From NCBI RefSeq assembly GCF_004010195.1, contig NC_057749.1, positions 5,923,344-5,987,343 of the forward strand: 64,000 nucleotides of DNA, given 5' to 3'. The translations under genes and the position numbers were made by a program. Below the pieces are notes generated by a model. It had not been told where the DNA came from. It saw only the letters and a program-made list of their open reading frames with translations, and did no database searches. This document shows, in pieces, positions 3,340 to 58,814 of this stretch; within the stretch, counting starts at the first letter, position 1, and every line of letters begins with the position of its first letter. This DNA comes from Chiloscyllium plagiosum (taxonomy: Eukaryota).

Positions 3340-3600
3340 GCACTTATTATTGCCATAAAACTCACAGTATTCCGCTTCACTGCTTTTCATTCTGACAAAG
3401 TCTGAGCTTGTTCATTTGATCTTTTATTGTTTACAGCCTCATCCATTATTTCTTCACTTGTCTTAATACCACTCCATTTACCCATTTAATCACTCCTTTT
3501 CACAACCCTGTAGCTGTGCTTTTGTCCTCCAATACTGGCTCCTGAACAGCTCCAACTTTAATCGCTTTGGCAGCTATGCCTTAAGAAGCCATGGTCTGAA
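3340..3600 (+). mobile_element. Degenerate L2-like LINE 3' region
   Basis: Pyrimidine-rich, with L2-like ggcagctatgccttaag segment; interrupted by CR1. Confidence 0.35.
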
Positions 3601-3604
3601 GTGG

Positions 3605-4197
3605 ATAAGAGTGGGGAGGTCATATTGCAGCTTTACAGGGCATTAGTTAGGCCACTATTGGAATATTGTGTGCAGTTCTGGTCTCCCTGCTATTGGAAGG
3701 ATGTTGTAAACTTGAAAGGGTTCAGAAAACATTTACAAGGATGTTGCCAGGGCTAGAAGATTTGAACGATAGGGAGAGGTTGATTAGGCTGGGACTATTT
3801 TCCCTGGAGTGCCGGAGGCTGAGGGGTGACCTTATAGAGGTTTATAAAATCATGAGGAGCATGGGTAGGGTAAATAGACATGATCTTTTCCCTGGGGTGG
3901 AAAAGTCCAAAACTAGAGGGCATAGGTCTAAGGTGAGAAGGGAAAAATTTACAAGGGACCTAAGAGACAACTTTTTCATGCAGAGGATGGTGCATGTATG
4001 GGAAAAGCTGCCAGAGGAAGCGGTGGAGGTTGGCATGATTACAACATTTAAAATGCATCTGGATGAATATATGAATAGGAAGGCTTTAGAGGGATATGAG
4101 CAAAGAACTGGAAAATGGGACTGGATCAGTTTAGGATACCTGGTCGGCACGGATGAGTTGGACTGAGGGGTCTATTTCTGTGCAGTATGACTCTATG
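3605..4197 (+). mobile_element. CR1 LINE 3' fragment
   Basis: ORF2 C-terminus LERVQKTFTRMLPGL...FFMQRMVHVW; 3' UTR ending tgactctatg. Confidence 0.92.
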
Positions 4198-4700
4198 GTT
4201 GCCTCACAGCCTCTCCACCCTCTTTCCTCCATTTGAGATGCCTCTCCTTTTACTGCATTCAAAGACACTATACAAATATAATTTATATTTTGTCCTTTCT
4301 TTCCCTCTTTACCCTCACTCCGTTGGTTTTGGCTCTGCACTAAAATCTATTAAATCTCCATTTGCTTCCAGCTCTAAGGAAAGGTCAGTGATCTGAAACA
4401 TAACTCTTTTTACACACTCCACATATGCTGTGTGCCCTTGAGTGTTTCCAATGTATTCTGTTGTTACTCACGAAAGGTTGATACTGTATGCCAACCGAGA
4501 GGCAGATAATCAACAAACCTGTATTAGGTGGCTTTTGTTTGAAAGACCATATTAAACCTCGTCCTTGGTCACCTCAAGACAACAATTCACCGCATTGGAT
4601 GAATTGCAAGGAGAAATATTTCATTACTTAGCTTCACTACTCTCCAGCATTGCTGCTAAATTCAGGGATGTTCTTTAAAACTGTGAGTGGTTTTGACTGG

Positions 4701-5732: not shown

Positions 5733-5896
5733 GGTCAGGCAACATCCAAGGAGCAGGAGAATCGGCTTTTCGAGCATAAGCTCTTCATCAGTAATGCTTG
5801 AAGCTTCGATTCTCCTGCTCCTCGGATGCTGCCTGACCGGCTGTGCTTTTCCAGCACCACACTCTTCGATTCTGATCTGCAGTGCTCACGTTCTCC
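5733..5896. mobile_element. PLE-derived palindromic element, family A (degenerate)
   Basis: Inverted arms gtcaggcaacatccaaggagcaggagaatcg / cgattctcctgctcctcggatgctgcctgac. Confidence 0.8.
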
Positions 5897-6157
5897 CATA
5901 GAATCTTGAGGTGGCTATTTTGGACTGGCATGGAAATGATGAACCTTTTTCTGTGCTGTCCTTATGAATCCAATTTCTTTGCAATTTGTACTATTTCCTG
6001 ACCTCTAAATCCCACAATTTTTATCCACATTTTGTGTTTGAATAAGATAAATAGATAGAAGGAAATAGGTTTAAAGGGATATGGGCAAAGGACAGATACA
6101 TTAACAGTATAATGTATAGTGTTATGATCCTAATAGTGACAGATAGCTTTCAAAAAG

Positions 6158-8639: not shown

Positions 8640-9090
8640 TGTTTCCCCGCACAGTTCAAAGATGTGCAGGTTAGGTGGATAGGCCATGCCGCATAGTGTC
8701 CAGGTATGTGTGGGTGAGGTGGGTTAGCCATGGGGAATGCAAGGTTATAGGGATAGAGTATGGTGGGGGGTGGGGGGGTCTGGGTGGGATGTTCTTGAGA
8801 AGAGTTGGTGTGGACTCAATGGGCTGAAGTCTAGACCAGAGTGGTGCTGGAAAAGCACAGCAGGTCAGGCAGCATCCGAGGAGCAGAAAAATTGACGTTT
8901 CGGGCAAAAGCCCCGTCATTCCTGATGAAGGGCTTTTGCCCGAAATGTCGATTTTCCTGCTCCTCGGATGCTGCCTGACCTGCTGTGCTTTTCCAGCACC
9001 ACTGTAAGCTTGACTCTGATCTCCAGCATCTGCAGTCCTCACTTTTGCCTCATTGAGCTGAAGGGCCTGTTTTCTGCACTGTAGGGATGT
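8640..9090 (+). mobile_element. HE1-like SINE split by a PLE family A insertion
   Basis: caaagatgtgcaggttaggtgg...; resumes gaagggcctgttttctgcactgtaggga after 9063. Confidence 0.8.
8830..9048. mobile_element. PLE-derived palindromic element, family A, with hammerhead core
   Basis: CTGATGA(8922)-A-GGGC TTTT GCCC-GAAATGTC; TSD ctcaatgggctgaag 8815-8829 / ctcattgagctgaag 9049-9063. Confidence 0.85.
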
Positions 9091-11401: not shown

Positions 11402-11484
11402 ATGCATGTTTGTAATTTGGGGCTGTGAGTAGTCATAAAGCAGATGGGGAGACATCAAGTTACATAAAAACCTATAAGATTTTA

Positions 11485-13131
11485 TCAGAACTGGGAGAAG
11501 AATGGGGTACGAGATATCAGACTAAAAAGGATCGAGGTTAGTTATGCACAGGTGTTATCAATTCTAGAAGGAGTGAAAGTAGACAGGTCCCACGGGACGG
11601 ATGGGATTTATCCAAGGATTCTCTGGGAAGCTAGGGAGGAGATAGCAAAGCCTTTGGCTTTGATATTTGAGTCATCATTGTCTACAGGTTTAGTACCTGA
11701 GGACTGGAGGATTGCAAATGTTGTGCCCTTGTTCAAGAAGGACAGCAGTGATGACCCAGGTAATTATAGACCAGTGAGCTTACTTCTGTTGTAGGAAGGG
11801 ATTTGGAAAGGATTATAAGAGATAAGATTTATAATCATCTGGCAAGCAACAATTTGATTTCAGATAGTCAACATGGTTTCGTCAAGGGCAGGTCGTGTCT
11901 CACAAACCTCATTGAATTTTTTGAGAAGGTGACCAAGCATGTAGATGAGGGTAGAGTAGTTGATGTGGTATACATGGACTTCAGTAAAGCCTTTGATAAG
12001 GTTCCACATGGTAGACTGATGGAGAAAATGCAGAGGCATGGAATTGAGGGTGATTTAGCAGTTTGGATTAGAAACTGGCTTTCTGAAAGAAGACAGCGAG
12101 TGGTTGTTGATGGAAAATATTCAGTCTGGAGTCAGTTACTAGTGGTGTGCCACAAGAATCTGTTTTGGGACTACTGCTGTTTCTCAATTTTATAAATGAC
12201 TTAGACGCAAGCATAGGTGGATGGATTAGTAAATTTGCAGATGACACTAAACGTCGGTGGAGTAGTGGATAATTTGGAAGAATGTTACAGGTTACAGGGG
12301 AACTTGGATAAACTGCAGAATTGGGCTGAGAGGTGGCAAATGGAGTTCAATGCAGCTAAATGTGAGGTGATGCACTTTGGGAAGAATAACAGGAAGGCAG
12401 AGTACTGGGTCAATGGGAAGATTCTTGGTAGTGTGGATGTGCAGAGGGATCTTGGAGTCCATGTACATAGATCCCTGAAAGTTTCCACCCAGGTGGATAG
12501 TGCTGTTAAGAAGGCATACGATGTGTTAGGTTTCATTTGTAGAGGGATTGAGTTCCGGAATCGTAATATCATGCTGCAACTATACAAAACGCTGCTGCGG
12601 CCACACTTGGAATATTGTGTACAGTTCTGGTCGCCCCATTACAGGAAGGATGTGGAAGCATTGTAAAGGGTGCAGAGGAGATTTACCAGGATGTTGCCTG
12701 GTCTGAAGGGAAGGTCTTATGAGGAAAGGCTGAGAGACTTGGGTCTGTTCTCATTGGAAAGAAAAAGGCAATGGGGGGGATTTGATAGAGACATACAAGG
12801 TGATCAGAGGATTAGATAGGGTAGACAGTGAAAGACTTTTTCTTAGGATGATGATGTCAGCTTGTACGAGAGGGCATCACTATAAATTGAGGGGTGATAG
12901 ATTTAAGACAGATGTCAGAGGCAGGTTCTTTACGCAGAGAGTGGTAAGGGCGTGGAATGCCCTACCTGCTAATGTAGTCAACTCAGCCACATTAGGGAGA
13001 TTTAAACAATCCTTAGATATGCACATGGATGATTTTGGGATAGTGTAGGGGGACGAGCTGAGAATGGTTCACAGGTCGGCATAACATTGAGGGCCAAAGG
13101 GCCTGTTCTGCGCTGTATTGTTCTATGTTCA
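11485..13131 (+). mobile_element. CR1 LINE, 5'-truncated, frameshifted reverse transcriptase
   Basis: NYRPVSL, QHGFVKGRSCLTNL, YMDFSKAFDKVPH, KFADD region and FFTQRVV in broken frames; ctatgttc tail. Confidence 0.95.
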
Positions 13132-15629: not shown

Positions 15630-15812
15630 CTGATGGTGGAAACCTGAAACAAACACAAACTGCTGGAGAAACTCAGCAGGTCCGGCAGCATCTGTGAAGA
15701 GAGAAACTGAGTTAAATTGAATCATATCAGACCCCAAAACATTGTTTTCTCTCCCCACGGATGCTGCCAGACCGGTTGAGTTTCTCCAACATTCTCGGTG
15801 TTTGCTACAAAT
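15630..15812. mobile_element. Old PLE palindromic element, family D
   Basis: Inverted arms ctggagaaactcagcaggtccggcagcatc / gatgctgccagaccggttgagtttctccaa. Confidence 0.7.
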
Positions 15813-15845: not shown

Positions 15846-16666
15846 TAGAGTCATAGAGCCATAGAGGTGTATGGCATGGAAACAGATCCAACGGTCCAAC
15901 ACCAGATATCTGAAATTAATCTAATCCCAATTGCCAGCATTTGACTCATATTCCTCTAAACCCTTCTTATTCATATACTTGTCCAGATGCCTTTTAAATG
16001 TTGTAATTGTATTAGTCTTAACCACTTCCTCTGGAAACTCATTCCATATACACACAACCCTCTGCATGAAAACATTGGCCCTTAGATCCCTTTTAAATCT
16101 TTCCCCCCTCACCTTAAACCTATACTCACTAGTTTTGGACTCCCCTACCCTGGGGAAAAGACCTTGTCTATTCATCCTATCAATGCCCTTCATGATTTTA
16201 TAAACCTCTATAAGGTCACCCTCCGTCTCTCCAGGGAAAATAACCCTGGCCTGTTCAGCCTCTCCCTGTAGCTCAAACTCTCCGACCCGAGTAACATCCT
16301 TGTGAATCTTTTCTGAACCCTTTCAAGTTTTCAAAGTTTGTGAAAAGATTTGTAGCTCGGGTGCTCGATGTTGTGGTTCTGTTCGCCGAGCTGGAAATTT
16401 GTGTTGCAGATGTTTCGTCCCCTATCTAGGTGACATCCTCAGTGCTTGGGAGCCTCCTGTGAAGCGCTTCTGTGATCTTTCCTCCGGCATTTGTAGTGGT
16501 TTGAATCTATGTCACCTAGACAGGGGATGAAATGTCTGCAACACAAATTCCCAGCTCGGCGAACAGAACCATAACCTTTCAAGTTTCACAACATCTTTCC
16601 TGAAGGGGGGGAGACCAGAATTTAACACAGTATTCCAAAAGTGGCCTAATCAATGTCTTGTACAGC
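15846..16666 (-). mobile_element. CR1 LINE 3' fragment with nested PLE
   Basis: Minus ORF MKGIDRMNRQGLFP...GNWD; reversed tail tagagtcatagag. Confidence 0.9.
16331..16574 (-). mobile_element. PLE terminal element (family B) with inverted partial copy and hammerhead core
   Basis: Minus gca-CTGAGGA-T-GTCACC TAGATA GGGGAC-GAAACATC-tgc (16406-16445); inverted arm 16510-16574; TSD cctttcaagttt 16319-16330 / 16575-16586. Confidence 0.8.
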
Positions 16667-16997: not shown

Positions 16998-17667
16998 TCA
17001 AAATTCACTCATGGGACATGGGTGTCGCTGGCTGGGACCATATTTCTTGCCCGTCTCTAGTTGCCCTTTGAGAAATTAGCGGTGGGCTGCCTTCATGAAC
17101 TGCTGCATTCTGTGAGAAAAGTGAATTTTCAGAACCTTCAGATCATTTGATAGATATGTTTGTCCTTAATAAGTAAAGCAGATTGGCTTGAGTTGTTTGG
17201 TTTCAGGAGAATCATTAGGAAAAGATCTTTTTATTCTGTAAAATCACAAGGATTAGACAAATCAGACGAAGATTTCCTGCAGCATTGAAGAGTCTGGCTT
17301 GTGTAATCTGATTTGTCCTTGTTTTGTTGCTGTTTCTATAGTAATAGCAGGAAAGAGAGGAAATTGAGAAATTACAGACAGACACAGACCTTGCAATAAC
17401 TAATATAGCAAAAAATGAAATAGATAGAAGACGAGGATAAACATTGTTTGTGAACACCCACGCTCCCTCTCATTTTTCCTGCTACTGCACAGACCTCTGA
17501 CATGCATGGCAACAACTTCCAGAACCTGGGGTCAAAGTGTCCCAATATCTACTGGTTTGTGGGGACTCTACAAATTCTGCATAGTAGAATAAGTAAATAA
17601 ACAGCTAGTGAAATAACATTTTAGCCCAATATCTCGGAAGGAGTTTGTGAGTCATTTTCTGTGTGAT

Positions 17668-19475
17668 GAGGCACCATCTTTTATTTCCACCTTCCCATGG
17701 TTGATGCACCATTTATATTTTCCCCTTTCTGTGCTTGGTGCACCATTTTATATTTTCCCTTTTCTGTGCTTGGTGCACCATTTATATTTTCCCCTTTCTG
17801 TGCTTGGTGCACCATTTAATATTTTCCCCTTTCTGTGCTGGGTGCACCATTTTATATTTTCCCCTTTCTGTGCTTGGTGCATCATTTTATATTTTCCCTT
17901 TTCTGTGCTTGATACACCATTTATATTTTCCCCTTTCTGTGCTGGGTGCACCATTTTATATTTTCCCCTTTCTGTGCTTGGTGCACCATTTTATATTTTC
18001 CCCTTTCTGTGCTTGGTGCACCATTTTATATTTTCCCCTTTCTGTGCTTGGTGCACCATTTTATATTTTCCCCTTTCTGTGCTTGGTGCACCATTTTATA
18101 TTTTCCCCTTTCTGTGCTTGGTGCACCATTTTATATTTTCCCCTTTCTGTGCTTGGTGCACCATTTTATATTTTCCCCTTTCTGTGCTTGGTGCACCATT
18201 TTATATTTTCCCCTTTCTGTGCTTGGTGCACCATTTTATATTTTCCCCTTTCTGTGCTTGGTGCACCATTTTATATTTTCCCCTTTCTGTGCTTGGTGCA
18301 CCATTTTATATTTTCCCCTTTCTGTGCTTGGTGCACCATTTTATATTTTCCCCTTTCTGTGCTTGGTGCACCATTTTATATTTTCCCCTTTCTGTGCTTG
18401 GTGCACCATTTTATATTTTCCCCTTTCTGTGCTTGGTGCACCATTTTATATTTTCCCCTTTCTGTGCTTGGTGCACCATTTTATATTTTCCCCTTTCTGT
18501 GCTTGGTGCACCATTTTATATTTTCCCCTTTCTGTGCTTGGTGCACCATTTTATATTTTCCCCTTTCTGTGCTTGGTGCACCATTTTATATTTTCCCCTT
18601 TCTGTGCTTGGTGCACCATTTTATATTTTCCCCTTTCTGTGCTTGGTGCACCATTTTATATTTTCCCCTTTCTGTGCTTGGTGCACCATTTTATATTTTC
18701 CCCTTTCTGTGCTTGGTGCACCATTTTATATTTTCCCCTTTCTGTGCTTGGTGCACCATTTTATATTTTCCCCTTTCTGTGCTTGGTGCACCATTTTATA
18801 TTTTCCCCTTTCTGTGCTTGGTGCACCATTTTATATTTTCCCCTTTCTGTGCTTGGTGCACCATTTTATATTTTCCCCTTTCTGTGCTTGGTGCACCATT
18901 TTATATTTTCCCCTTTCTGTGCTTGGTGCACCATTTTATATTTTCCCCTTTCTGTGCTTGGTGCACCATTTTATATTTTCCCCTTTCTGTGCTTGGTGCA
19001 CCATTTTATATTTTCCCCTTTCTGTGCTTGGTGCACCATTTTATATTTTCCCCTTTCTGTGCTTGGTGCACCATTTTATATTTTCCCCTTTCTGTGCTTG
19101 GTGCACCATTTTATATTTTCCCCTTTCTGTGCTTGGTGCACCATTTTATATTTTCCCCTTTCTGTGCTTGGTGCACCATTTTATATTTTCCCCTTTCTGT
19201 GCTTGGTGCACCATTTTATATTTTCCCCTTTCTGTGCTTGGTGCACCATTTTATATTTTCCCCTTTCTGTGCTGGGTGCACCATTTTATATTTTCCCCTT
19301 TCTGTGCTTGGTACACCATTTTATATTTTCCCCTTTCTGTGCTTGGTGCACCATTTTATATTTCCCCTTTCTGCACTTGGTGCTCCATTTATATTTTCAC
19401 CTTTCTGTACTTGGTGCATGACTTGAAAGCTTTTCCTTTCTGTGCAGTGGTGCACCATTTTACATTTACCCCTTT
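17668..19475. repeat. 35-bp minisatellite, about 50 copies
   Basis: Unit CCCTTTCTGTGCTTGGTGCACCATTTTATATTTTC; the lines at 18001 and 18421 are identical (420 = 12 x 35); degenerate edges. Confidence 0.97.
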
Positions 19476-19765
19476 ATTTAATATTTTCATTCTTTATGTT
19501 TTTGTTTTCCTTCCAATGTGGGTGGAATATTCCCACAAAAGAAGATCCAAACTCAAGTTATTATTTTCAAATTGCGATCGGTGGATTTTAGCTGAATAAG
19601 GGTAACAAACAACATTCAAGCAAGAGTAGAAGATAAAGATACAAATCATCTGTGACCTAACCATATGGCAGTGGAACTGCCTTGATGGGTTGAAGGGCCT
19701 CCTGATGTTCCCATGTTTCTATGGACTGTATTGTACATTGATGTGGTAGGCCTGCATATTGTGGT

Positions 19766-22451: not shown

Positions 22452-22613
22452 ATCTTCCACATGACCTACGACCTGGCAAGTGCAGTGGTGCGCATTGTTA
22501 ACCTCATTGGGATGATGCTGTTGCTATGCCATTGGGACGGTTGCCTCCAGTTCCTGGTTCCTATGCTGCAGGAGTTCCCAGCTGACTGCTGGGTGTCTCT
22601 CAACAACATGGTG
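22452..22613 (+). CDS. HCN4: Internal coding exon (exon 3 equivalent) of an HCN channel, HCN4-like: [54 protein letters not shown]
   Basis: Acceptor ttttgtctgattggacAG|ATC and donor GTG|gtgagt; 162 nt = 54 codons, phase 0/0. The peptide is the conserved HCN S4-S5/S5/turret segment. [11 protein letters not shown] plus VPML matches HCN4 better than HCN1/HCN3 (RIFN) or HCN2 (VMRICNLIS). HCN family is near certain; the paralog is less certain. Confidence 0.9.
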
Positions 22614-24337: not shown

Positions 24338-25306
24338 ATTGGCAACATTGTCAGCAGACCACCCTGATGTCTTTGGGGTTAGCTGCATTATCTCAAGGAA
24401 AGGGGGCCTGGTCTCTGGTATTGGCATTATATGTCATGCAGGAAGTCAACTTTATCTGGGACACTGTAAACGTGGCACAACACGAGGGAGCTTCCAAGGT
24501 TTGAAGATAATGCACTGGTGTCTTGGGTGAAAGAGAATTGAAAGTAGATTGTTTTGTCCGCATGCGGTCTTTTCCAGGCAAGCAGCCAAAAGGCAAATGG
24601 AGGAGATAGCCATTGAGGTTAATGCCAGGGGTCAAGGCCTTTGTACCTGGATGTAGTGGCGCAAAGGTCATTTGATGTCCTATCATACTTGGTCATGGTC
24701 ATTGGACTCATCTTCAAATTTCATGTCCTACCAATGGCTTCATTGGCATAACAGATTCTCTGAACCTCCATCAGTCACTTGTCAACAATCTCTACCAATC
24801 TGGACTCAAGCCACTGCATGCCTTCTGTGCTTCACACTGTGGTAAACCTTGGAACTTTCACACCCTGGCTATTCAACTAAGACAGGCATGTCACCCAAAC
24901 ACATTCTATAATGCACATTCATACATTTCCAATTTTTTTAGAGGACAAGGCATCACGCAGTGGGAGGTGGGAGAAGCTTCCCAGATTGGGTACAAGTTTA
25001 TGGGTGACCAAACCCTGATGAAAGAGGCAGGGCCAGGCATTACTTTGTCGGTGAGGCCAAATCGATTGAAGGTGATGGCATCCGCACCTCAAGCTTAATG
25101 CTCCTTGGAGAGTATGCCTACTTTGTACCAGAATTTCTTCTGACTTCAAATGTTTCAGCACGGGCCATTTACATTCTCCCTAACTCCCTGCATCCCCTCA
25201 GAAGGAATCTGTCCAAGAAGGTCAACCTGGACGGGCAGTAGAGGAGTGGCAAAAAGAAGAAGAATGATCAAGAAGCTTAATTGTTCAAGCACAGACTGTA
25301 TGTGCG

Positions 25307-25791
25307 TGTGGATGTAAGTTTGCTCACTGAGCTGGAAGATTTGCTTTCAGATGTTTCACAACCATGCTAGGCAACATCATCAGTGAGCCTCTGGTGAAGC
25401 ACTGGTGGTATGGGCCCGCCTTTTATTTATGTGTTTAGGTTGCCTTGGGTTGATGACATCATTTCCTGTAGTGATGCCATTTCCTGCGGCGATGTCACTT
25501 CCGGTTATTTTTCTCAGGGGGTGGTAAATGGGATCCAAGTTAATCTGGCTGTTGACAGAGTTCTGGTTGAAATGCCACACTTCTAGGAATTTTTGTGGGT
25601 GTCTCTGTTGGGTTTGGCCTAGGATGGATGTGTTGACCCAGGTGAAGTGGTGTCCATCCTCATCTGTATGTAAGGATCCTAGTGAGAAAGGATTATGAAT
25701 TTTTGTGGCGAGTTGATGTTCATGTATCCTGGTGGCTAGTTTTCTGCCTGTTTGTCCAATGTAGTGTTTGTTATAGTTCTCATAAAACTGT
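25307..25791 (-). mobile_element. Penelope-like retroelement 3' end: GIY-YIG endonuclease remnant plus terminal repeat with hammerhead core
   Basis: Minus translation KHYIGQTGRKLATRIHEH...ILG...FLEVWH...N; downstream tca-CTGATGA...GAAACATC-tga (25347-25386); flanks ctgtatgtgYg at 25296 and 25792. Confidence 0.88.
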
Positions 25792-26030
25792 CTGTATGTG
25801 TGCATGTCTGTATATGTGTTTGTCTCTGTGTGTGATGTGAATGTGTTTGTGTGTGTGTATGTGTGTGTGTCTCTGCATGTGATATGAATATGTCTGAGTG
25901 TGCCTGTATGTGTGTGTCTCTGCGTGTGATGTGAATGTGTCTGTGTGTGAGCGTGTCTGTGTGTGATATGAATGTGTGTGTGTGCGTGTGTCTCTGCATG
26001 TGACGTGAATGTGAGAGTGTGTGTGTGGGC
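25792..26030. repeat. Degenerate (TG)n microsatellite
   Basis: TG-rich low complexity; explains the His/Thr-rich ORFs. Confidence 0.9.
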
Positions 26031-26839
26031 TGTGATACAAGGCTGATCTGCAACCACAGCAGAAAGGCAAGGTCAGTGCAGGTTCCAATTTGGAGGAAAT
26101 TTCATGCCTCCTCTGCTGCAGTGGACTCGGGTAAAAACTTCGACTGGGTTGACTACAAGTGAAGATTGACAGGCTCAAACACTGGAATGTTTGGGCACTG
26201 GAAAACCTGTCAGAAAGTCTGTTGGTTTCTGATGAGAGAGCATATACTGTGACCAGCCTCTCTTTGAGCAGAGATTCTCAGTGATCTTCCTTGTACAAGA
26301 GAGGACAGTGGACTGCGATGCGTGAAATCTCCATCTCTAGCATAGTCAGAGCTAGAAATAAGAAAGGTCATTTTGAATGCTTAACTTCATTGCTTGAATG
26401 CTCTGAGCTTACAGTCATGGCTGCTCCAGGTGATAGAGTTCAATGAAGACTGAAACGTAGATGCCCTGATGCAGTCTTCCTGGCTGTTCCCTGAATGTTC
26501 TGGGCATATCGAGCCTCCTACTGTGGTGCAGGCTCGAAGGGCTGAATGGTGCATCAGTTTTCTATGTTGACAGAGTGTCCATCTGCACGGTTCCTTCCCC
26601 TCCCTGTCACAGCCACTTATCCTACTTTGCATTTCACGGCGAAGACCTGCACATTTGCCCAGATCTGGGTTCAGAGATCTGTGCAGAGGACTTGAAATCA
26701 GGTGAAATGTTTCCCATCTGTCTCATCTGGGCATTTACAGGTTGAAAGAACTGCAGAAAGCTCCAAGTGTGTGTGGAAAATCTCACCCACGCCAACCTGC
26801 AACGAACCCATATGGAATTGACAATCACGTTACATCCAA

Positions 26840-27195: not shown

Positions 27196-27377
27196 CTTAG
27201 CAAGCAAACCTTGGGTTTGCTTCCTCTCTGGTTCAATTAATTCAATTAATTCTGAGGTAATTAACAAGACCAATGCAAACTATACTATTCATGGGGCAAG
27301 TAACAACTCTGGTCACTTGATGATTTATGTGCTCCCTCTGATTCTTTGACTTTGCCCGGACTTCTTCCTGAGCAACC

Positions 27378-27425
27378 AGGTGAAAGTGAGGGCTGCAGAT
27401 GCTGGAGGATCAGAGACTCCACTCT
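27378..27425 (-). mobile_element. Tiny PLE family A end fragment
   Basis: ggtgaaagtgagggctgcagatgctgga; flanks ttcctgagcaa at 27365 and 27428. Confidence 0.6.
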
Positions 27426-27472
27426 CATTCCTGAGCAAACCTCTCAAACGGTGCGCAGCCTTCCCGCCTAGC

Positions 27473-27790
27473 TGCCTGAGGAAAGAGCGGGGACTCCGAA
27501 AGCTTGTGGTTTCAAATAAACCCGTTGGATTACAGATATCCCCCGCTATCCCAAAGTAGAGCATTCCTATGAAACCTTTTGTAAGCTGATATGGAGAAAG
27601 AAAAGAAGGATTAATTTATCTGGAAAATTTCGCCTTTTCTCATAAAGGCGAAAATCCTCTTCGGATTTCTTTTGGTCAGTGAAAACAGGTACTAACGTAG
27701 GTCTTTTGTAAAAGCGAAGTGGGGTGAAGCGAACTTTCAAAAAACAGGGGATAACTTTATTACCCAGTGTCGTGTAATTTTTTACTTTTT
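27473..27790 (+). mobile_element. PLE family C arm, split by a MITE
   Basis: CTGAGGA...ctccGAAAGCTT...aaataaacccgttggatTA|MITE|TAttacccagtgtcgtgtaatttt. Confidence 0.6.
27533..27757. mobile_element. Tc1/mariner (Tigger/pogo-like) MITE
   Basis: TA-CAGATATCCCCCGC...CAGGGGATAACTT-TA imperfect terminal inverted repeats with TA duplication. Confidence 0.65.
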
Positions 27791-29670: not shown

Positions 29671-31190
29671 CATCAGTATTTGCTGTGGAAAAGGATATGG
29701 AAAATATAGACTGTAGGGAAATAGATGGTGACATCTTGCAAAATGTCCAGATTACAGAGGAGGAAGTGCTGGAGGTCTTGAAATGGTTAAAAGTGGATAA
29801 ATTGCCAGGACCTGATCAGGTGTAACATGGAACTCTGTGGGAAGCTAGAAAAGTGATTGCTGGGCCTCTTGCTGAGACATTTGTACCATTGATAGTCACA
29901 GGTGAGGTGCCGGAAGACTGGAGGTTGGCAAACGTTGTGCCGCTGTTTAAGGAGGGCGGTAAAGACAAGCCAGGGAACTATAGACCAGTGAGCTGACCTC
30001 AGTGGTGGGCAAGTTGTTGGAGGGAATCCTGAGGGACAGGATGTACATGTATTTGGAAAAGCAAGGACTGATTCGGGATAGTCAGCATGGCTTTGTGTGT
30101 GGGAAATCATGTCTCACAAACTTGATTGAGTTTTTTGAAGAAGTAACAAATAAGATTGATGAGGGCAGAGCAGTAGATGTGACCTATATGGACTTCAGTA
30201 AGGCATTCGACAAGGTTCCCCATGGGAGACTGATTAGCAAGGTTAGATCTCATGGAATACAGGGAGAACTAGCCATTTGGACAGAACTGGCTCAAAGGTA
30301 GAAGACAGAGGATGGTGGTGGAAGGTTGTTTTTCAGACTGGAGGCCTGTGACTAGTCGGGTGGCACAAGGATCGGTGCTGAGCCCTCGCATTTGTCATTT
30401 TGTCATTTACATGAATGATTTGGATGTGAGCATAAGAGTTACAGTTAGTAAGTTTGCAGATGACACCAAAATTGGAGGTGTAGTGGACAGCGAAGAGGGT
30501 TACCTCAGATTACAACAGGATCTTGATCAGATGGGCCAGTGGGCTGAGAAGTGGCAGATGGAATNNNNNNNNNNNNNNNNNNNNNNNNNNNNNNNNNNNN
30601 NNNNNNNNNNNNNNNNNNNNNNNNNNNNNNNNNNNNNNNNNNNNNNNNNNNNNNNNNNNNNNNNNNNNNNNNNNNNNNNNNNNNNNNNNNNNNNNNNNNN
30701 NNNNNNNNNNNNNNNNNNNNNNNNNNNNNNNNNNNNNNNNNNNNNNNNNNNNNNNNNNNNNNNNNNNNNNNNNNNNNNNNNNNNNNNNNNNNNNNNNNNN
30801 NNNNNNNNNNNNNNNNNNNNNNNNNNNNNNNNNNNNNNNNNNNNNNNNNNNNNNNNNNNNNNNNNNNNNNNNNNNNNNNNNNNNNNNNNNNNNNNNNNNN
30901 NNNNNNNNNNNNNNNNNNNNNNNNNNNNNNNNNNNNNNNNNNNNNNNNNNNNNNNNNNNNNNNNNNNNNNNNNNNNNNNNNNNNNNNNNNNNNNNNAATG
31001 AGCTGCTAGAGGAAGTGGTGGAGGCTGGTACAATTGCAACATTTAAGAGGCATTTGGAAGTGTATATGAATAGGAAGGGTTTGGAGGGATATGGGCCGGG
31101 TGCTGGCAGGTGGGACTAGATTGGGTTGGGGTATCTGGTCGGCATGGACGGGTTGGACCGAAGCATCTGTTTCCATGCTGTATGACTCTG
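29671..31190 (+). mobile_element. CR1 LINE reverse transcriptase region spanning the gap
   Basis: QHGFVCGKSCLTNL, DFSKAFDKVPH, KFADD; 3' end follows the gap. Confidence 0.93.
30565..30996. other. Assembly gap (432 N)
   Basis: Run of N within a CR1 copy. Confidence 1.
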
Positions 31191-34420: not shown

Positions 34421-34467
34421 GCTGCCCTGAATTTGGAGGTTTGAAGCTTGGTGGTGGTGGAACAAGT

Positions 34468-34660
34468 TGAGAGTGTGTTGCTGGAAAAGCGCAGTAGGTC
34501 AGGCAGCATCCGAGGACCAGGAGAATGAAAGGTTCCTGAAGAAGGGCTTCGGCCTGAAATGTTGATTCTCCTGCTCCTCAGATGTTGCCTGACCTGCTGT
34601 GCTTTTCCAGCAACACACTCTCAACTCTGTTCTCCAGCATCTGCAGACCTCGCTGTCTCC
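34468..34660. mobile_element. PLE family A palindromic element
   Basis: Inverted arms; CTGAAGA-AGGGC TTCG GCCT-GAAATGTT; flanks ggaacaagt on both sides. Confidence 0.82.
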
Positions 34661-34801
34661 TCGGTGTCGGAACAAGTGTCAACATTTTATCCGATTTGAT
34701 TTTGTCTGTTTGTGGCTGAGCAAGGCTAATAGAGTTATGTGTAGCTTTGATAGACCACCAAAAAGAAAAATAATGTTACCTGCCCAATACATGATTCTAC
34801 G

Positions 34802-34884
34802 CCTGAGGAAGGAGCTGAGCTCTGAAGGTTTGCAATTTCAAATAAACCTGTTGGACTATAACCTGGTGCTGTTTGATTTTTGAC
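34802..34884 (+). mobile_element. PLE family C arm (degenerate)
   Basis: cctgaggaaggagc...aataaacctgttggactataacctggtg. Confidence 0.65.
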
Positions 34885-36174: not shown

Positions 36175-36350
36175 ATAACACAAAGAACTACAGATGCCGG
36201 TAATCTGAAACCAAAACAGAAATTGCTGGAGAAACCCAGCAGCTCTGGCAGCATCTGTGGAAAGACAACAGGGTTAATATTCTGAACAAGGGTCACTAGA
36301 CCCGAAACCAACACAGATACTGCCAGACCTGCTGATTTCTGTTTTTTTGT
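36175..36350. mobile_element. Old PLE family D element
   Basis: Inverted arms; degenerate core CTGAACA-A-GGGTC ACTA GACCC-GAAAC. Confidence 0.7.
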
Positions 36351-40625: not shown

Positions 40626-40744
40626 TCTGTACCTGTTGCCATTAGAGGCTCAAAGTTCCGCCCAGTGTACCTGAACAAGTAAATGCAGCAAGGATGTTCC
40701 CGTTGATCGGATTGTCCTGAACAAGGGGAATCACAGTTTAATGC

Positions 40745-41792
40745 TATCTGGATTCAGAATTGGCTGGGCCTGCAGGTCAGTGTTGAGTGGGGTCCTGCAG
40801 GGCTCTGTTCTTGGGCCTCTGCTCTTTGTAGTTTTTATAAATGACTTGGATGAGGAGGTTGAGGGGTGGGTTAGTAAATTTGCAGATGACACAAAGGTTG
40901 GAGGTGTCATCGATAGTATAGAGGGCTACTGCAGGCTGCAGCGCAATATAGACAGGATGCAAAGCTGGGTTGAGAAATGGCAGATGGAGTTCAACCTTGA
41001 TGAATGCGAAGTGATGCATTTTGAAAGGTTGAACTCGCATGCTGAATATAGGATTAAAGACAGGATTCTTGGCAGTGTGGAGGAACAGAGGGATCTGGGT
41101 GTGCAAGTTCATAGATCCCTTAAAGTTGCCACCCAAGTGGATAGGGTTGTTCAGAAAGCATATGGTGTTTTGGCTTTCATTAACAGGGAGATTGAGTTTA
41201 AGAGCCACAAGGTTTTGCTGCAGCTCTACAAGACCCTGGTGAGACCACACTTGGAATATTGTGCCCAGTTCTGGTCACCCTACTATAGGAAAGATACAGA
41301 GGTTTTGGAGAAGGTGCAAAGAAGGTTTACCAGGACACTGCCTGGACCGGAGGGCCTGCCTTATGAAGAGAGGTTGAATAAGCTCGGACTTTTCTCTCTG
41401 GAGAGAAGGAGGAAGAGAGGAGACCTGATCGAGGTGTACAAAATCATGAGTGGAATAGATAGAGTGAATAGCCAGAGATTTTTCCCCAGGGCAGGATTGA
41501 CTGGTACGAGGAATCATAGTTTGAAGATATTAGGAGGAAGGTATAAAGGAGACATCAGAGGTAGGTTCTTTACACAGAGAGTTGTGAATGAATGGAATGC
41601 ATTGCCAGCTGTGGTGGTGGAAGCAGAGTCATTGGGGACATTTAAGCGACTGCTGGACATGCACATGGATAGCAGTGAGTTGAGGGGTGTGTAGGTTAAG
41701 TTACTATATTTTACATTAGGATCAAATCTCGGCACAACATCGTGGGCCAAAGGGCCTGTTCTGTGCTGTACTTTCCTATGATCTATGTTCTA
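40745..41792 (+). mobile_element. Young CR1 3' half, open for about 310 codons to the natural stop
   Basis: GVLQGSVLGPLLF...KFADD...FFTQRVVNEWNALP; ctatgatctatgttc tail; inserted in an older CR1 (40690-40740, 41793-41920). Confidence 0.95.
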
Positions 41793-45204: not shown

Positions 45205-46592
45205 GCATTTGACAGGTTCCTCAAGACAGACTGGTAAGCAAGGTTAGATCTCATGGAATACAGGGAGAACTAACCATTTGGATACAGAACTGGTTCGAAG
45301 GTAGAAGACAGAGGGTGGTGGTGGAGGGTTGCTTTTCAGACTGGAGGCCTATGACCAGTGATGTGCCACAAAGATCGGTGCTGGGTCCACTACTTTTCAT
45401 CATTTATATAAATTTGATTTGGATGTGAACATTGGAGGTATAGTTAGTAAGTTTGCAGGGAGAAAGTGAGGACTGCAGATGCTGGAGATCAGAGCTTAAA
45501 AATGTGTTGCTGGAAAAGCGCAGCAGGCCAGGCAGCATCCAAGGAGCAGGAGAATCGACGTTTCGGGCATAAGGCCTTCTTCAGGATTCCTGAAGAAGGG
45601 CTTATGCCCGAAACGTCAATTCTCCTGCTCCTTGGATGCTGCCTGACCTGCTGCGCTTTTCCAGCAACACATTTTTCAGCTTAGTAAGTTTGCAGATGAC
45701 ATCAACATTTGAGATGAAGTGGACAGCGAAGAAGGTTACCTCAGAGTATAATGAGATCTTGATCATGTGGGCCAATGGGCTGAGAAGTGGCAGATGGAGG
45801 TTAAATTAGATAAATATGAATTGCTGCATTTTGGAAAATCAAATCTTAGCAGGACGTATACACTTAATGTTAAGGTCCTGGGGAGTGTTGTTGAGCAAAA
45901 AGACCTTGGTGTGCAGGTTCATAGTTCCTTGAAAGTAGAGTCACAGGTAGATAGGATAGTGAAGGTGGTGTTTGTATGCTTTCCTTTATTAATTAGAGTA
46001 TTGAGTACAGGAGTTGAGAGCTTGTGTTGTGGCTGTACAGGACATTGATTAGGCCACTTTTGGAATGTTGCATGCAATCCTGGTCTCTTTCCTATCAGAA
46101 AGATGTTGTGAAACTTGAAATAGTTCAGAAGAGATTTACAAGGTTGGAGGATTTAAGCTATAGGGAGAGGCTGAATAGGCTAGTGCTGTTTTCTTGGAGT
46201 GTTGAAGGCTGAGGGGTGACCTTATAAAAGTCTATAAGATCATGAGGGGGATGGATAGGATAAATAGACAAGGTATTTTCCCTGGAGTGGAGGAGTTCAG
46301 AACTAGAGGGCATAGGTTTAGGGTGAGAGGGGAAAGATATAAAAGGGACCTAAGGGGTAACATTTTCACACAGAGGGTGGTATGTGTATGGAATGAGCTG
46401 CCAGAGGAAGTGGTGGAGGCTGGTACAATTTCAGCATTTAAAAGGCATCTGGATGGGTATATGATTAGAAAGGGTTTAGAGGGATATGGGCCAAGTGTTG
46501 GCAAATGGGACTAGATTAGTTTGGCATATCTGATCGGGCTGGATGAGTTAGATTGAAGGGTCTGTTTCAGTGCTATCCATCTCTATGACTCA
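45205..46592 (+). mobile_element. CR1 reverse transcriptase and 3' end, with a PLE inserted at the FADD codons
   Basis: gcatttgacaggttcc...ttagtaagtttgcag|PLE|ttagtaagtttgcagatgac...GKWD. Confidence 0.93.
45459..45680. mobile_element. PLE family A near-perfect palindrome with hammerhead cores on both strands
   Basis: + CTGAAGA(45590)-A-GGGC TTAT GCCC-GAAACGTC(45617); perfect 15-bp TSD 45444-45458 / 45681-45695. Confidence 0.9.
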
Positions 46593-48892: not shown

Positions 48893-49467
48893 GCATTTTT
48901 ATTACCCTTTTTTATGGTAATCTTTGGAATGTAGTCACTGTTATAATTTAGGAAACCCTGCAATAAGTTTGCACAGAGCAAGGTGGCACATATGAAATAA
49001 TGCCTAGTTAATCTGATTTAGCATTGTTGGTCGAGGGGTAAATGTAGACCAGGATAATGAGGAGAACTCTCACTCTTGTAAAAATACTGTGGTATCTTGC
49101 TCATTGACCTGAAAGAGGGTCGGTTAGCTCAGTTGGCTGATTTGTAATGCAACGTGACACCAACAGCAGGATTTGATTCTCACACTGCCTGAGGATATGG
49201 TGAAGATCTCACTTTCTCCACCATTTTCTTCACCTGAGGCATGGTGATCCTTGAGTTAAACCACCACCAGCTGTGTCTTGCTCTCTAATGAGAGGGCGGG
49301 ACAATGGCTGCTTTATCTATTCATCTGAAAGAGGGTTTGGGCTTAGGTTTAGTCTCTTACCTGACAGGAAAACCTGCCCTCAGTACTCAGAATTTTGCCT
49401 TTGATATTGTACTCCGGTCTGATAGCTGGTTGAGATGGATCAATATTATTGCACCAAAACATAAGCT

Positions 49468-49659
49468 AGGAGAAAGTGAGGAGTGCAGATGCTGGAGATC
49501 AGAGTCGAGAGTGTGGTGCTGGAAAAGCACAGCAGATCAGGCAGCATCCAAGGAGCAGGAGAATCGACATCCGGATGAAGGGCTTACACCCGAAACATTG
49601 ATTCTTCTGCTCCTCAGCTGCTGCCTGATCTGCTGTGCTTTACCAGCACCACACTCTTG
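49468..49659. mobile_element. PLE family A palindromic element (degenerate core)
   Basis: Inverted arms; flanks accaaaacataag / accaaaatatagg. Confidence 0.82.
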
Positions 49660-50294
49660 ACCAAAATATAGGATCAGGGTTAGCCGAGTAGGGATAATAT
49701 TCCCAAACATCATATGTGTGATGAGGTAGAGGTCCAACTGACAACAGGGACCTCTTGTTGATCCCTGCCTCAAGTCCTGAGCATGGGGTTGTTTGTATAA
49801 AGGTGGGTCTCTGACCTTGAGACCAGGAGGATATGAAAAGTGACTTCAGAGAAGCATGTGCGGAAGCTGGAAGTGGGGGACGAAGGGAGTAGTGTGAGGT
49901 GAATGGGTGGGGCTGCTGAATTCAATTGCAAGAGCTGTCCCTTTAAGATTGTTGAACTCAGTCCACACCAGGATCAAATCGTGCCTCCCTTCTTCGCACA
50001 GAATATGGAAGCTGCCAGTTTAGGATATCTGCTAAAATGCCCACACATCGATCTGAAGAGAAGCTGAGAGGTGTCCTGCTAACACCTCCACCCTCCTCCA
50101 ACATTATGGAAAGAGTATTCGGTAATTCTCTGTTTAACCGAATACTGCCACCTTCCACCCAAATGAAAAGAAAAAAGCAGATAGAAATTCAGATGCTTGA
50201 GAAGGGAGAAAAAAGGTTAAGTAGGAAAGAAGAGGAGAAGATAAGATGCAATAGAGATGCATGATTCAGCAGTATTAAACCATCAGAGACATGA

Positions 50295-52644: not shown

Positions 52645-53118
52645 GCTTATAAAATCATGAAGGGCATGGAGAGGGTGAATAGCCAAGGTCTGTTGCATAG
52701 GGCAGGGGAAGTCCAAATCTAGAGATCACAGGTTTAAGGTGAGAGGGGAAGGATTTAAAAGGGGCCTGATACCTTTTGCACACAGAGGGTGGTGTGTGCA
52801 TGGAATGAGTTTCCAGAGGAAGTGGTGGTGCAATAATAATATTTAAATGAATAGGAAGAGTTCAGACCTGATGAAGAGTCTTCTAGACTTGAAACATAAG
52901 CATGCTTTTGCTCCACGGGTGATGTCTGACCTGTTGTGATCTCCAGCACTTTCTGTTTTCAGTTCGGATTCCAACATCTGCAGTAATTTGCTCCAACAGA
53001 GTTTAAAGGGATATGGGCCAAATGCTGGCAAATGGCACTAGGTTAATTTGAGGTGTCTGGTCAGCATGGACTGGTTGGACTGAAGGGTCTGTTGCCATGC
53101 TGTATAACTATGACTCTA
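52645..53118 (+). mobile_element. CR1 3' end with a PLE family D insertion (about 52863-52996)
   Basis: Insert carries CTGATGA(52868)-A-GAGTC TTCTA GACTT-GAAACATA; agagtt on both flanks. Confidence 0.8.
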
Positions 53119-55619: not shown

Positions 55620-55816
55620 CTAAACAAAAAGCTTTAGCAATAAATATCTCTCCTCATTGAAAAATGCTTTTATTTTTACAGAAAAGTGATAAGCACACTT
55701 GTTGATTCAATAATGGACTATTCAGATCCTGCATCCTGTGCGGGAAAAATTCCTAACTTCCCACACACCAGAGGACAATGTCTCTCCAATAGATCCTGGC
55801 TGAATTGCTCAGTCCA

Positions 55817-56055
55817 TGATTTGGAGATGCCGGTGTTGGACTGGGGTGGACAAAGTTAAAAATCACTCAACACCAGGTTATAGTCCAACAGGTTTAATTG
55901 GAAGCACACTAGCTTTCGGAGCGACGCTCCTTCATCAGGTGGTTGTGGACACTATCACCTGATGAAGGAGCAGCGCTCCGAAAGCTAGTGTGCTTCCAAT
56001 TAAACCTGTTGGACTATTACCTGGTATTGTGTGATTTTTAACTTTGTTCAGTCCA
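55817..56055. mobile_element. PLE family C palindromic element with two intact minimal hammerhead motifs
   Basis: + cac-CTGATGA-A-GGAGC AGC GCTCC-GAAA-GC-TA-gtg (55956-55990); minus cac-CTGATGA-A-GGAGC GTC GCTCC-GAAA-GC-TA-gtg (55907-55941). Confidence 0.85.
55956..55990 (+). ncRNA. Putative minimal type I hammerhead ribozyme motif
   Basis: Full core CUGAUGA/GAAA/UH, 5-bp stem II, 3-bp stem I, palindromic AGCU in place of stem III; activity untested. Confidence 0.65.
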
Positions 56056-57189: not shown

Positions 57190-57525
57190 TTAGTGATTGT
57201 AACAAGGTCAGCCAGGCACACCTCATAGAACCAAAAACAGAAATTGCTGGAAAAGCTCAGCAGGTCTGGCAGCATCAGTGACTAGAAATCGGAGTTAACA
57301 CTTCGGGTCCGATGACCCTCAGAACTGGATCTCGTAGAAAATGAGTTTGCTCATTGGGTCTGTTAATCTGGTCCCATCATGGAGCCCTGGCTGACAGATA
57401 TAAACAAGAGTGTCAGAGGTTCTGTTTACCCTGCAAGCAGGCTCTGAGGGACCAAGACCAGTGTCAAGGACTCTCTAAGCGTCAATAAAGGGTGACTAGG
57501 TGATAGGATACTTGCCTCTGTGGAG
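57190..57525 (+). mobile_element. Solo-LTR-like element (family L1) with a PLE family D insertion (57231-57330)
   Basis: TATAAA and AATAAA; insert flanked by ctcatagaa 57222 / ctcgtagaa 57331. Confidence 0.62.
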
Positions 57526-58146
57526 GAAGACCTTGAATCTCCCTCATTCTGAAGAGGGATTTGAATGCTCTGCTATTGGTATCAATCTGATCCACACACT
57601 AGCCATCTCTTCAACTGAACTAACTGGGTCCCCACATATTACTTTGCAGCAATGATAGGGTTCACCAAAAGAAACAAAAGAGACTAATCCCACAATATTA
57701 ATAGTTCAACACGGATTAGCTTTTTCAATTGGAGGCCATGGTCATGGAAAATGGATAGTGAACTAAATTTTTATCTGATAAACCTTGTTGGGAGCAGAGT
57801 AAAAGGTGCTTCATCTGGGGTCTTACTATAACACTGAACACCGGAGATGAGAACCAGTCACATTTCCCAGCAGTGTAACAGATAGATAAAGGCTTGCTTC
57901 ATTGAAAGATCATCATGATGACAGGCCTCAATTGTGATTACAATACAAATAAAGCAAGTAACTGTAATTCATAATATCGTTATAGATAATTATTAAAATC
58001 CATAATGTGACATGAAAATAAATGATAAAATTAGTGTTGCGCAGTGTGAACATGCAGGCAAATAATTATAGCACATTTCAAAATGCGTGCCTGAATTTAC
58101 AGAATAAGATTGAAAGTTTTACTGACCTCTGCTTTTTGTATCCCAG

Positions 58147-58332
58147 ATGTGGAGATGCCGGTGTTGGACTGGGGTGGACAAATTCAGAAGTCACGTAACA
58201 CCAGGTTATAATCTGGCAGATCTTCTGAAATCACAAGCTTTCAGAGCCTAGCCCCTTCATCAGTTTGGTGAAGGAGCAGCACTCCAAAAGATTGCAATTT
58301 GAAAAAACCTGTTAGACTATAACCTGGTTTTG
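58147..58332. mobile_element. PLE family C palindromic element (degenerate)
   Basis: ggagatgccggtgttggactggggtggacaaa identical to the 55823 region; decayed cores. Confidence 0.75.
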
Positions 58333-58814
58333 TATTAAGGTCTATAGATCATGTATTTTCAGGTCAAACTCATTAAATTCACAATCAATTACATAAAATA
58401 GGAGTTTTATAAAGTAGGGGATTTTCACTGTCTGATAGTTGATTCGTTCTGTATTTTACATACACAATGGTGTCTTTTGTCCAAAATTCCATTGTAGATT
58501 GAGAGACTAGTTGAAGGTGGGATTCAACGGATTTCTAGTGAAGCCCAAATAAACATTCTGCACTGGTGCAAAAATCTGGAGCAGTGAGAAAGAAGTAATT
58601 AAAATATTTCCATTTCTGAGATTCCCAATAGAGTGGTGAAGGAAGACATTTTGGGTAATTTGATTTCATGGAATTCCTTATCAGCTCAAGTGTAGTAGGA
58701 CCTTTGTGCTGCCATGGTATTGTCACTACTTCTGGGCTGGGAGCCCTGGGCTCAAGTCCCACATACAGCAGAAGTATGTAAACGCAACTCTGAACAAGTT
58801 GTTTAGAAAGTATC

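Follow-up and report, generated by a model that had tools for sequence, protein, structure and literature searches.

A 231-nt fold-back insertion with two minimal hammerhead motifs, probably of Penelope-like origin, downstream of an HCN4-like exon in Chiloscyllium plagiosum

The insertion and its hammerhead motifs

The stretch of DNA analysed here, referred to as the window, spans 64 kb of Chiloscyllium plagiosum and contains an HCN4-like coding exon and, further downstream, a short insertion at 55817-56047. The insertion is 231 nt long, has no coding part and consists of a 33-nt tail, present on one side only, followed by two inverted arms. The features of the locus are as follows.

22452..22613, plus strand: HCN4-like coding exon of 162 nt, bounded by AG..GT (E 4e-32), 33.2 kb upstream of the element
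55809..55816: left target-site duplication, 8 bp exact, or 12 bp with one mismatch when taken from 55805
55817..55849, minus strand: one-sided 33-nt tail, the 3' end of the element, with no partner arm
55850..55949, minus strand: tail-bearing arm, a 5'-truncated copy of the terminal repeat beginning 11 nt upstream of the core
55893..55898, minus strand: ATTAAA hexamer; a common family letter at 55897 gives AATAAA
55907..55941, minus strand: minimal type I hammerhead with loop GUC, predicted cut between 55910 and 55909
55946..55953: fold-back junction, two letters short of a perfect palindrome and seldom found in the family
55950..56047, plus strand: inverted tail-less arm, beginning 9 nt upstream of the core
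55956..55990, plus strand: minimal type I hammerhead with loop AGC, in sense orientation to the HCN4-like gene; cleavage is predicted after 55987
55999..56004, plus strand: ATTAAA in the host-sense arm, a variant of the poly(A) signal by sequence
56048..56055: right target-site duplication, a copy of 55809-55816

An earlier note on this DNA had described an element of about 240 bp at 55817-56055. Its inverted arms were recovered, whereas its right end had to be moved to 56047, with 56048-56055 now assigned to the target duplication. On the minus strand 26 of the 33 tail letters are A or C. The two 98-nt arms pair at 91 of their sites and differ at seven, and only three clearly private changes were counted across both; by this measure the copy appears to be young. 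A likeness was also noted between the target site at 55805-55816 and the tail-less end of the element at 55833-55853 (common TTGT/TTGC..CAGTCCA), which could reflect microhomology-guided priming or a preference of the enzyme for its own repeat.

Both motifs carry the hammerhead core, CUGANGA / GAAA / UH together with helices I and II. Both are made up of a 3-bp stem I (CAC/GUG), CUGAUGA followed by one unpaired A, a 5-bp stem II (GGAGC/GCUCC) closed by the G10.1-C11.1 pair, and then GAAA; the palindromic AGCU replaces helix III and H17 is A. The extra base after A9, the G10.1-C11.1 pair and the palindromic 15.2-16.2 positions are traits of minimal hammerheads, and all four hallmarks of those from Penelope-like elements (PLEs) are present here or across the hammerhead families of the window, in agreement with the Penelope-type assignment made in the earlier note. 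The motifs lie head to head, 14 nt apart, and the statement that they differ only in the stem II loop holds within the 35-nt motif, where they are identical outside AGC and GUC. Both cores and all of their CpG sites are intact, as is expected of a young copy. The ATG within the core opens a frame that stops after 8 codons in the sequence.

A strict hammerhead descriptor, composed post hoc after the motif had been seen, matched the 64-kb window twice and none of 100 shuffles, and a looser core pattern gave 10 matches against 2.07 expected, a number reached in 0 of 100 shuffles. Together with inspection of the motifs, the strict scan upheld the proposal of two intact minimal hammerheads at these positions. 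Rfam returned 19 matches in the window at E<=5, with hammerhead families absent among them, and the element itself matched only a microRNA model below threshold, as is usual for hairpins. An alignment of six local arms had 93% of stem cells paired and zero double-sided changes, which was not above shuffles, with a gap inside stem I in four rows.

The pairing of the two motifs had been considered special. This view was abandoned: any fold-back carries one motif per strand, the arrangement has already been published, and a dimer in cis is ruled out because the motifs lie on opposite strands. Co-folding in ViennaRNA, which is unable to model the dimer hammerhead core, gave another structure, with only -2.5 kcal/mol for the AGCU duplex.

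The plus motif is sense to the HCN gene, as had been stated, and the HCN4-like exon likewise lies on the plus strand. No further HCN exon was found among 294 frames of 44-99 aa and 73 frames of at least 100 aa, and no Pfam HCN domain in sets of 4, 90, 78 and 122 window frames, which did not include repeat-masked frames or 80 of the short ones (40-43 aa). Since no later exon was seen in the inspected frames, the element would lie in the intron that follows the HCN4-like exon. The fold computed for the plus transcript is a hairpin of -166.5 kcal/mol (z -20.6). The pair probability of stem II is about 0 in this hairpin and 0.97-0.99 when the arm is folded by itself; even then, stem I is not predicted (0.0003). 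The claim that the inverted arm buries the ribozyme was thus supported for read-through RNA, on the computed loss of stem II pairing. The further claim that burial protects the transcript was not, as single minimal hammerheads are uncut in vitro and the anole one requires its protein. With one sense motif per fold-back, no possible dimer in cis and inactive monomers, sequestration needs no adaptive account, and on the folding model the burial of the ribozyme would be a by-product.

Relatives in the window and the family at large

The earlier note had also pointed to decayed relatives at 27473, 34802 and 58147, and all three were recovered, two by blastn (at 71-79%) and the one at 27473 by motif scan and alignment only.

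58146..58333: older fold-back of the same family (blastn), with the same tail end, a centre 19 nt shorter and a decayed core
34802..34884, plus strand: single decayed arm of the same family, without tail (blastn)
27473..27530, plus strand: short decayed arm of the same family (motif scan and alignment)

In both local fold-backs (2/2) the AGC loop lies on the tail-less arm. The window also holds other hammerhead families, which by eye share the core and have different stems.

5733-5897, 8828-9050, 34467-34662, 45458-45680 and 49466-49660: fold-backs of a second hammerhead family, each with a tail on one side
14869, 28776, 37770, 40501 and 43511: single arms of the second family
25300-26072, minus strand: third family, where a remnant GIY-YIG-like frame lies immediately upstream of the hammerhead core at 25383
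16342-16575: fold-back relative of the third family, with a candidate duplication of 13-14 nt
15630-15810, 36184-36338, 2705-2766, 57235-57298 and 52868-52960: short arms and fold-backs of a fourth related family

All five fold-backs of the second family have different centres. In four of the five the mate ranked 1st or 2nd of 14 arms, and in the remaining one only 6th of 14; the mate arms hold letters absent from other insertions. Candidate target duplications of 7-16 nt were found at 9 of 10 fold-backs tried, several of them with a mismatch or an offset. The third-family frame was assigned at 0.95 to a GIY-YIG cluster in Atlas and was blank in Pfam. Rfam scores the fourth-family hairpins as sub-threshold microRNA precursors. 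By eye, 27368-27443 is a mini insertion consisting of a second-family tail alone; it has a duplication of 13-14 nt and lies just upstream of the arm at 27473.

About 44% of the window is self-repeated. It includes a near-perfect 35-bp tandem array of approximately 47 or more units (17617-19600), many decayed LINE-type reverse transcriptase fragments (3569-4200, 11468-13048, 29984-31190, 40675-41694, 45971-46590 and others), of which 40675-41691 gave a Pfam RVT_1 match, and a run of 432 N near 30560-30995.

Family-wide data were obtained by mapping 55630-55958 (left flank, left arm and centre, with the right arm left out) in 4 of 24 listed runs, three of them DNA-type and one RNA. The DNA-type runs, from three organisms, gave 81,418, 60,828 and 58,451 contig records on this stretch, which are records and not copy numbers. 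The family is very large and has a fixed tail end: in run X1, 3,791 contigs (1251+1533+1007) leave the element at 55815-17 into unlike, AT-rich flanks. Two classes of end recur family-wide, at 55815-17 and at about 55852-58, and the tail and the tail-less end are therefore features of the family. A few contigs join the 55815-17 tail end to the 55853-70 tail-less end on opposite strands; these joints represent either fold-back units in tandem or insertions of new copies at the ends of old ones. Depth declines toward the 5' end, with the core at 0.18-0.32 of the arm peak in the DNA runs, which is what 5' truncation would give and to which older subfamilies failing the 80% cut-off contribute. In all three DNA runs the bin at the centre had 1.4-2.0% of the depth of the preceding bin, a value partly due to the edge of the mapped stretch, and in each run 239-269 contigs pass at 55949 into a different sequence; no dominant centre fold-back was present among the 15 joints listed of 164. 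Among the positions listed, changes affect 9-12% of family DNA depth at G12, 9-11% at the adjacent stem CpG and 17-46% at a tail CpG.

Scans of viral contigs (two) and genome contigs gave 0 same-family copies. The only metagenome locus matched looks bacterial and is regarded as a 20-mer match arising by chance. Neither the window nor the viral, genome and metagenome contig scans yielded a reverse transcriptase or endonuclease frame linked to this family, and the upstream body of the family was not found in the window, where 3 near-matches compare with 2.7 expected.

In the RNA run, the reads of which may derive from any copy, poly(T) occurs at the place matching 55878 in 592 of 3,005 reads and at that matching 55881 in 461 of 3,005. 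These 1,053 poly(T)-ended reads, from places matching 55878-55881, show that hammerhead-sense family RNA is polyadenylated 12-15 nt after AATAAA/ATTAAA. As this RNA ends before the tail, it would offer no template for tailed insertions; such pre-tail ends would fit internal initiation on read-through RNA. The poly(A) hexamer in host-sense arms may, as a separate matter, be of more consequence to introns than the ribozyme. Depth over the predicted cut site is flat, with no pile of ends, the 3' product of about 30 nt being likely lost from such a library. No RNA match to the unique stretch of the locus was present among the runs listed. Places with A>G or T>C changes numbered 20 of 72 in RNA run X21, as against 4 of 36, 4 of 41 and 7 of 47 in the DNA runs (p 0.02-0.08), and non-editing changes in the RNA run attain the same shares of 10-15%. 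This mild excess is explained equally well by A-to-I editing and by expressed divergent loci.

Origin of the fold-back and rival readings

The insertion is best explained as a single retrotransposition of the 3' terminal module (pseudo-LTR) of an abundant Penelope-like element, with the mirror half made during integration, a reading to which we give a probability of about 0.8. The ends, tail, duplication and variable centres are observed; the enzyme, the priming route and a Penelope-like coding body are what we infer. The GIY-YIG endonuclease of the element would make a staggered cut at the target, giving the 8-bp duplication; reverse transcription, by analogy with the system of Frangieh et al., would begin at the tail end, within the element RNA, and halt approximately 10 nt upstream of the hammerhead; and a second copy, lacking the tail, would be made on the opposite strand and joined to the first head to head, in keeping with the structure seen. 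The hammerheads would then be passengers, which in the source element may be self-cleavers dependent on a dimer or on protein. Each transcript of the present copy would hold one sense motif preceded by its own antisense and form a long hairpin in which cleavage is not expected, and the copy would afterwards decay neutrally. The one-sided 33-nt tail, the inverted tail-less arm and the duplication match the published form of PLE insertions, and they agree with the pair of reverse transcription start sites between which the tail of the anole element lies: as in endonuclease-bearing (EN+) PLEs, the insertion is 5'-truncated with an inverted pLTR copy, has its tail at one end only and within the 30-40-nt range, and belongs with target duplications of variable length. 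The third-family frame, read as GIY-YIG-like and located upstream of a hammerhead, would also count for the Penelope reading.

Several observations count against this explanation. As described above, the scans linked no reverse transcriptase or endonuclease frame to this particular family, and the low depth at the centre is in part an edge effect. Three of the seven arm differences are family dimorphisms, of which a single-template fold-back predicts none and a two-armed master would predict them; the AGC loop lies on the tail-less arm in both local fold-backs; the opposite-strand tail-to-tail-less contigs are such as tandem palindromic units would give; and in one of the five second-family fold-backs the mate took only that 6th rank. 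At the places matching left-arm 55942, 55925 and 55924, the alternative letter accounts for 33-72% of family DNA depth, and it is this alternative that the right arm carries. A crude post hoc chance of about 0.001 for three such differences is overstated, as two of the sites are adjacent and the sites may be hypermutable. Since a fold-back from one template should start with identical arms, these differences fit it poorly; they may stem from an event that drew on two templates, from gene conversion at a later stage, or from a two-armed fixed master that has lost its centre.

It is possible, though on balance doubtful, that the two arms were copied from two RNA templates, held either in a dimeric protein-RNA complex or as two repeats of one tandem transcript. 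Two RNAs in one dimeric complex might be paired via their hammerheads; the two target strands, once nicked, would each prime a copy, beginning at the tail end on one and at the tail-less start on the other; and the copies would meet head to head, with the opposite letters at the three dimorphic sites as a footprint. RNA recombination at the cut site was considered as a source of the mixed arms and is unsupported, because the 3' letters common to both arms are those of the majority, and this combination of letters may be a frequent one. This two-template reading is the only part of the analysis with a chance of being new. If true, the share of mixed-arm insertions among tens of thousands of copies would help to tell self-priming fold-back from twin priming.

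A quite unlikely alternative makes the palindrome itself the non-autonomous unit, a two-armed master transcribed whole and mobilised by PLE proteins, of which this copy lost or altered a longer centre. It would account for the near 50:50 family splits at 55942, 55925 and 55924 with opposite letters on the two arms, for the position of the AGC loop in the local fold-backs and for the rare tail-to-tail-less joints, although the splits are equally explained by two subfamilies. A master of this kind is at odds with a centre at no more than about 2% of adjacent depth, with two local centres differing by 19 nt, with the existence of single arms (34802 and 27473), with the fall in depth toward the 5' end, and with the five different centres of the second family, in which the arms track their own insertion. 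Most copies do not share the same centre, as judged up to 55949. The proposal that the palindrome is the family unit could thus not be maintained, as centres differ between copies and the present one is rare family-wide; with centres varying and centre depth low, the palindrome was most likely built anew at each insertion and is no mobile unit of its own.

A host function, in which the inverted arm silences a poly(A) switch or attenuated ribozyme carried by the HCN4-like pre-mRNA, is highly improbable. The intact cores and CpG sites, the sense orientation of the plus motif and the very stable hairpin would be compatible with it, and the flank-tail junction seems common to a second organism, in a record reaching only 10 letters into the element, which is less than the overlap required to count as bridging. 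Such fold-backs are, however, common in the window, the copy is young by its private changes, monomers show no cleavage in vitro in the portions of PMC4209133 available, and G12 has decayed in the family to the same extent as the adjacent stem CpG.

The chance that the element is a MITE (of hAT type, given the 8-bp duplication) with a hammerhead-like string arisen by chance is next to negligible, as the inverted arms and the duplication that suggest it are accompanied by termini that are not inverted repeats (33 nt are unmatched on one side, so that they do not extend to both ends), by duplication lengths that vary among fold-backs, by arms found singly and truncated, and by a core common to families with different stems. 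The assignment to a retroelement rather than a MITE was thus upheld by the one-sided tail and the variable-length target duplications. A non-LTR retrozyme was rejected as well: head-to-tail units with same-strand hammerheads are not seen in this insertion, where the arms are inverted and each strand has one sense motif.

Within the single-retrotransposition reading, hairpins of this type are to be annotated as truncated Penelope insertions and not as MITEs, microRNA precursors or paired ribozymes. A large family with diagnostic dimorphisms also constitutes a data set on how Penelope elements build inverted copies, and on whether selection removes poly(A) signals or solitary sense-strand hammerheads from introns.

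Comparison with known systems

In the portions of the literature available, PLE insertions are described as 5'-truncated; a truncated copy in inverted orientation often lies beside them, and one end bears a 30-40-bp tail (PMC8557442; PMC8969392). PLEs are present across vertebrates (PMC4350176) and abundant in the introns of the whale shark (10.1101/443036), and dsRNA and siRNA are known to arise from inverted Penelope copies (PMC3681739), as given in the accessible parts of these papers. No published account of the present family was found in the literature on Penelope, hammerhead, shark and inverted pLTR, a mostly open-access body of work that does not include Repbase and Dfam. The insertion is a further lineage example of the PLE fold-back pattern already described.

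The closest likeness is to the complex insertions of EN+ PLEs. According to the parts of the source available, rotifer copies combine an inverted pLTR with a palindromic junction, a tail of 31 bp and duplications of 8-10 bp; self-priming was proposed there, without proof, as the origin of the inverted pLTR (PMC3846280). Head-to-head arms, a palindromic junction and a tail on one arm are shared with these insertions (PMC3846280; PMC8557442); the tail is 33 nt here and 31 bp in Pen2a_Av, and the duplication 8 bp here and 8-10 bp there. Unlike them, the whole insertion here consists of two truncated arms, 231 nt and noncoding. Differences between arms at family-dimorphic sites, as observed here, are not described in the available text of either paper.

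Minimal hammerheads are general in the repeats of metazoan PLEs, and their monomers do not cleave, as far as the available sections report (PMC4209133; PMC6765202). Cervera and de la Pena (2014; PMC4209133, accessible parts) describe dual opposite-strand motifs 100-700 bp apart and mostly solitary truncated copies; the available text names no shark. The present motifs agree with theirs in being of type I without helix III, with the extra base A9/10.1, the G10.1-C11.1 pair and the palindromic 15.2-16.2. Their stems are shorter than those of the Schistosoma motifs in that text (stem I 3 bp as against 4-5, stem II 5 bp as against 7-8), and the spacing of 14 nt contrasts with the 100-700 bp of the dual motifs. 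The stem III palindrome is AGCU with H17 = A, whereas other window families have ACGU or its decay product.

For Poseidon of Anolis, the available portions of Frangieh et al. (2024; PMC11167929) report that both target strands are cut and extended, that reverse transcription starts at two internal sites bounding the tail, and that the hammerhead cuts only with the protein and is dispensable for insertion. A terminal-repeat hammerhead, an AC-rich end, a tail bounded by two ends and AT-rich targets are common to Poseidon and the present family. The Poseidon reading frame starts at stem II, whereas the ATG in the present core is followed by the early stop described above.

Non-LTR retrozymes are PLE-derived tandem units reported in one chondrichthyan, according to the accessible part of Li et al. 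(bioRxiv 10.64898/2026.07.22.740005). The present insertion resembles them as a short non-coding hammerhead repeat related to PLE pLTRs; in that text, however, retrozymes are head-to-tail tandems with same-strand ribozymes, whereas this insertion is inverted, with one sense motif per strand.
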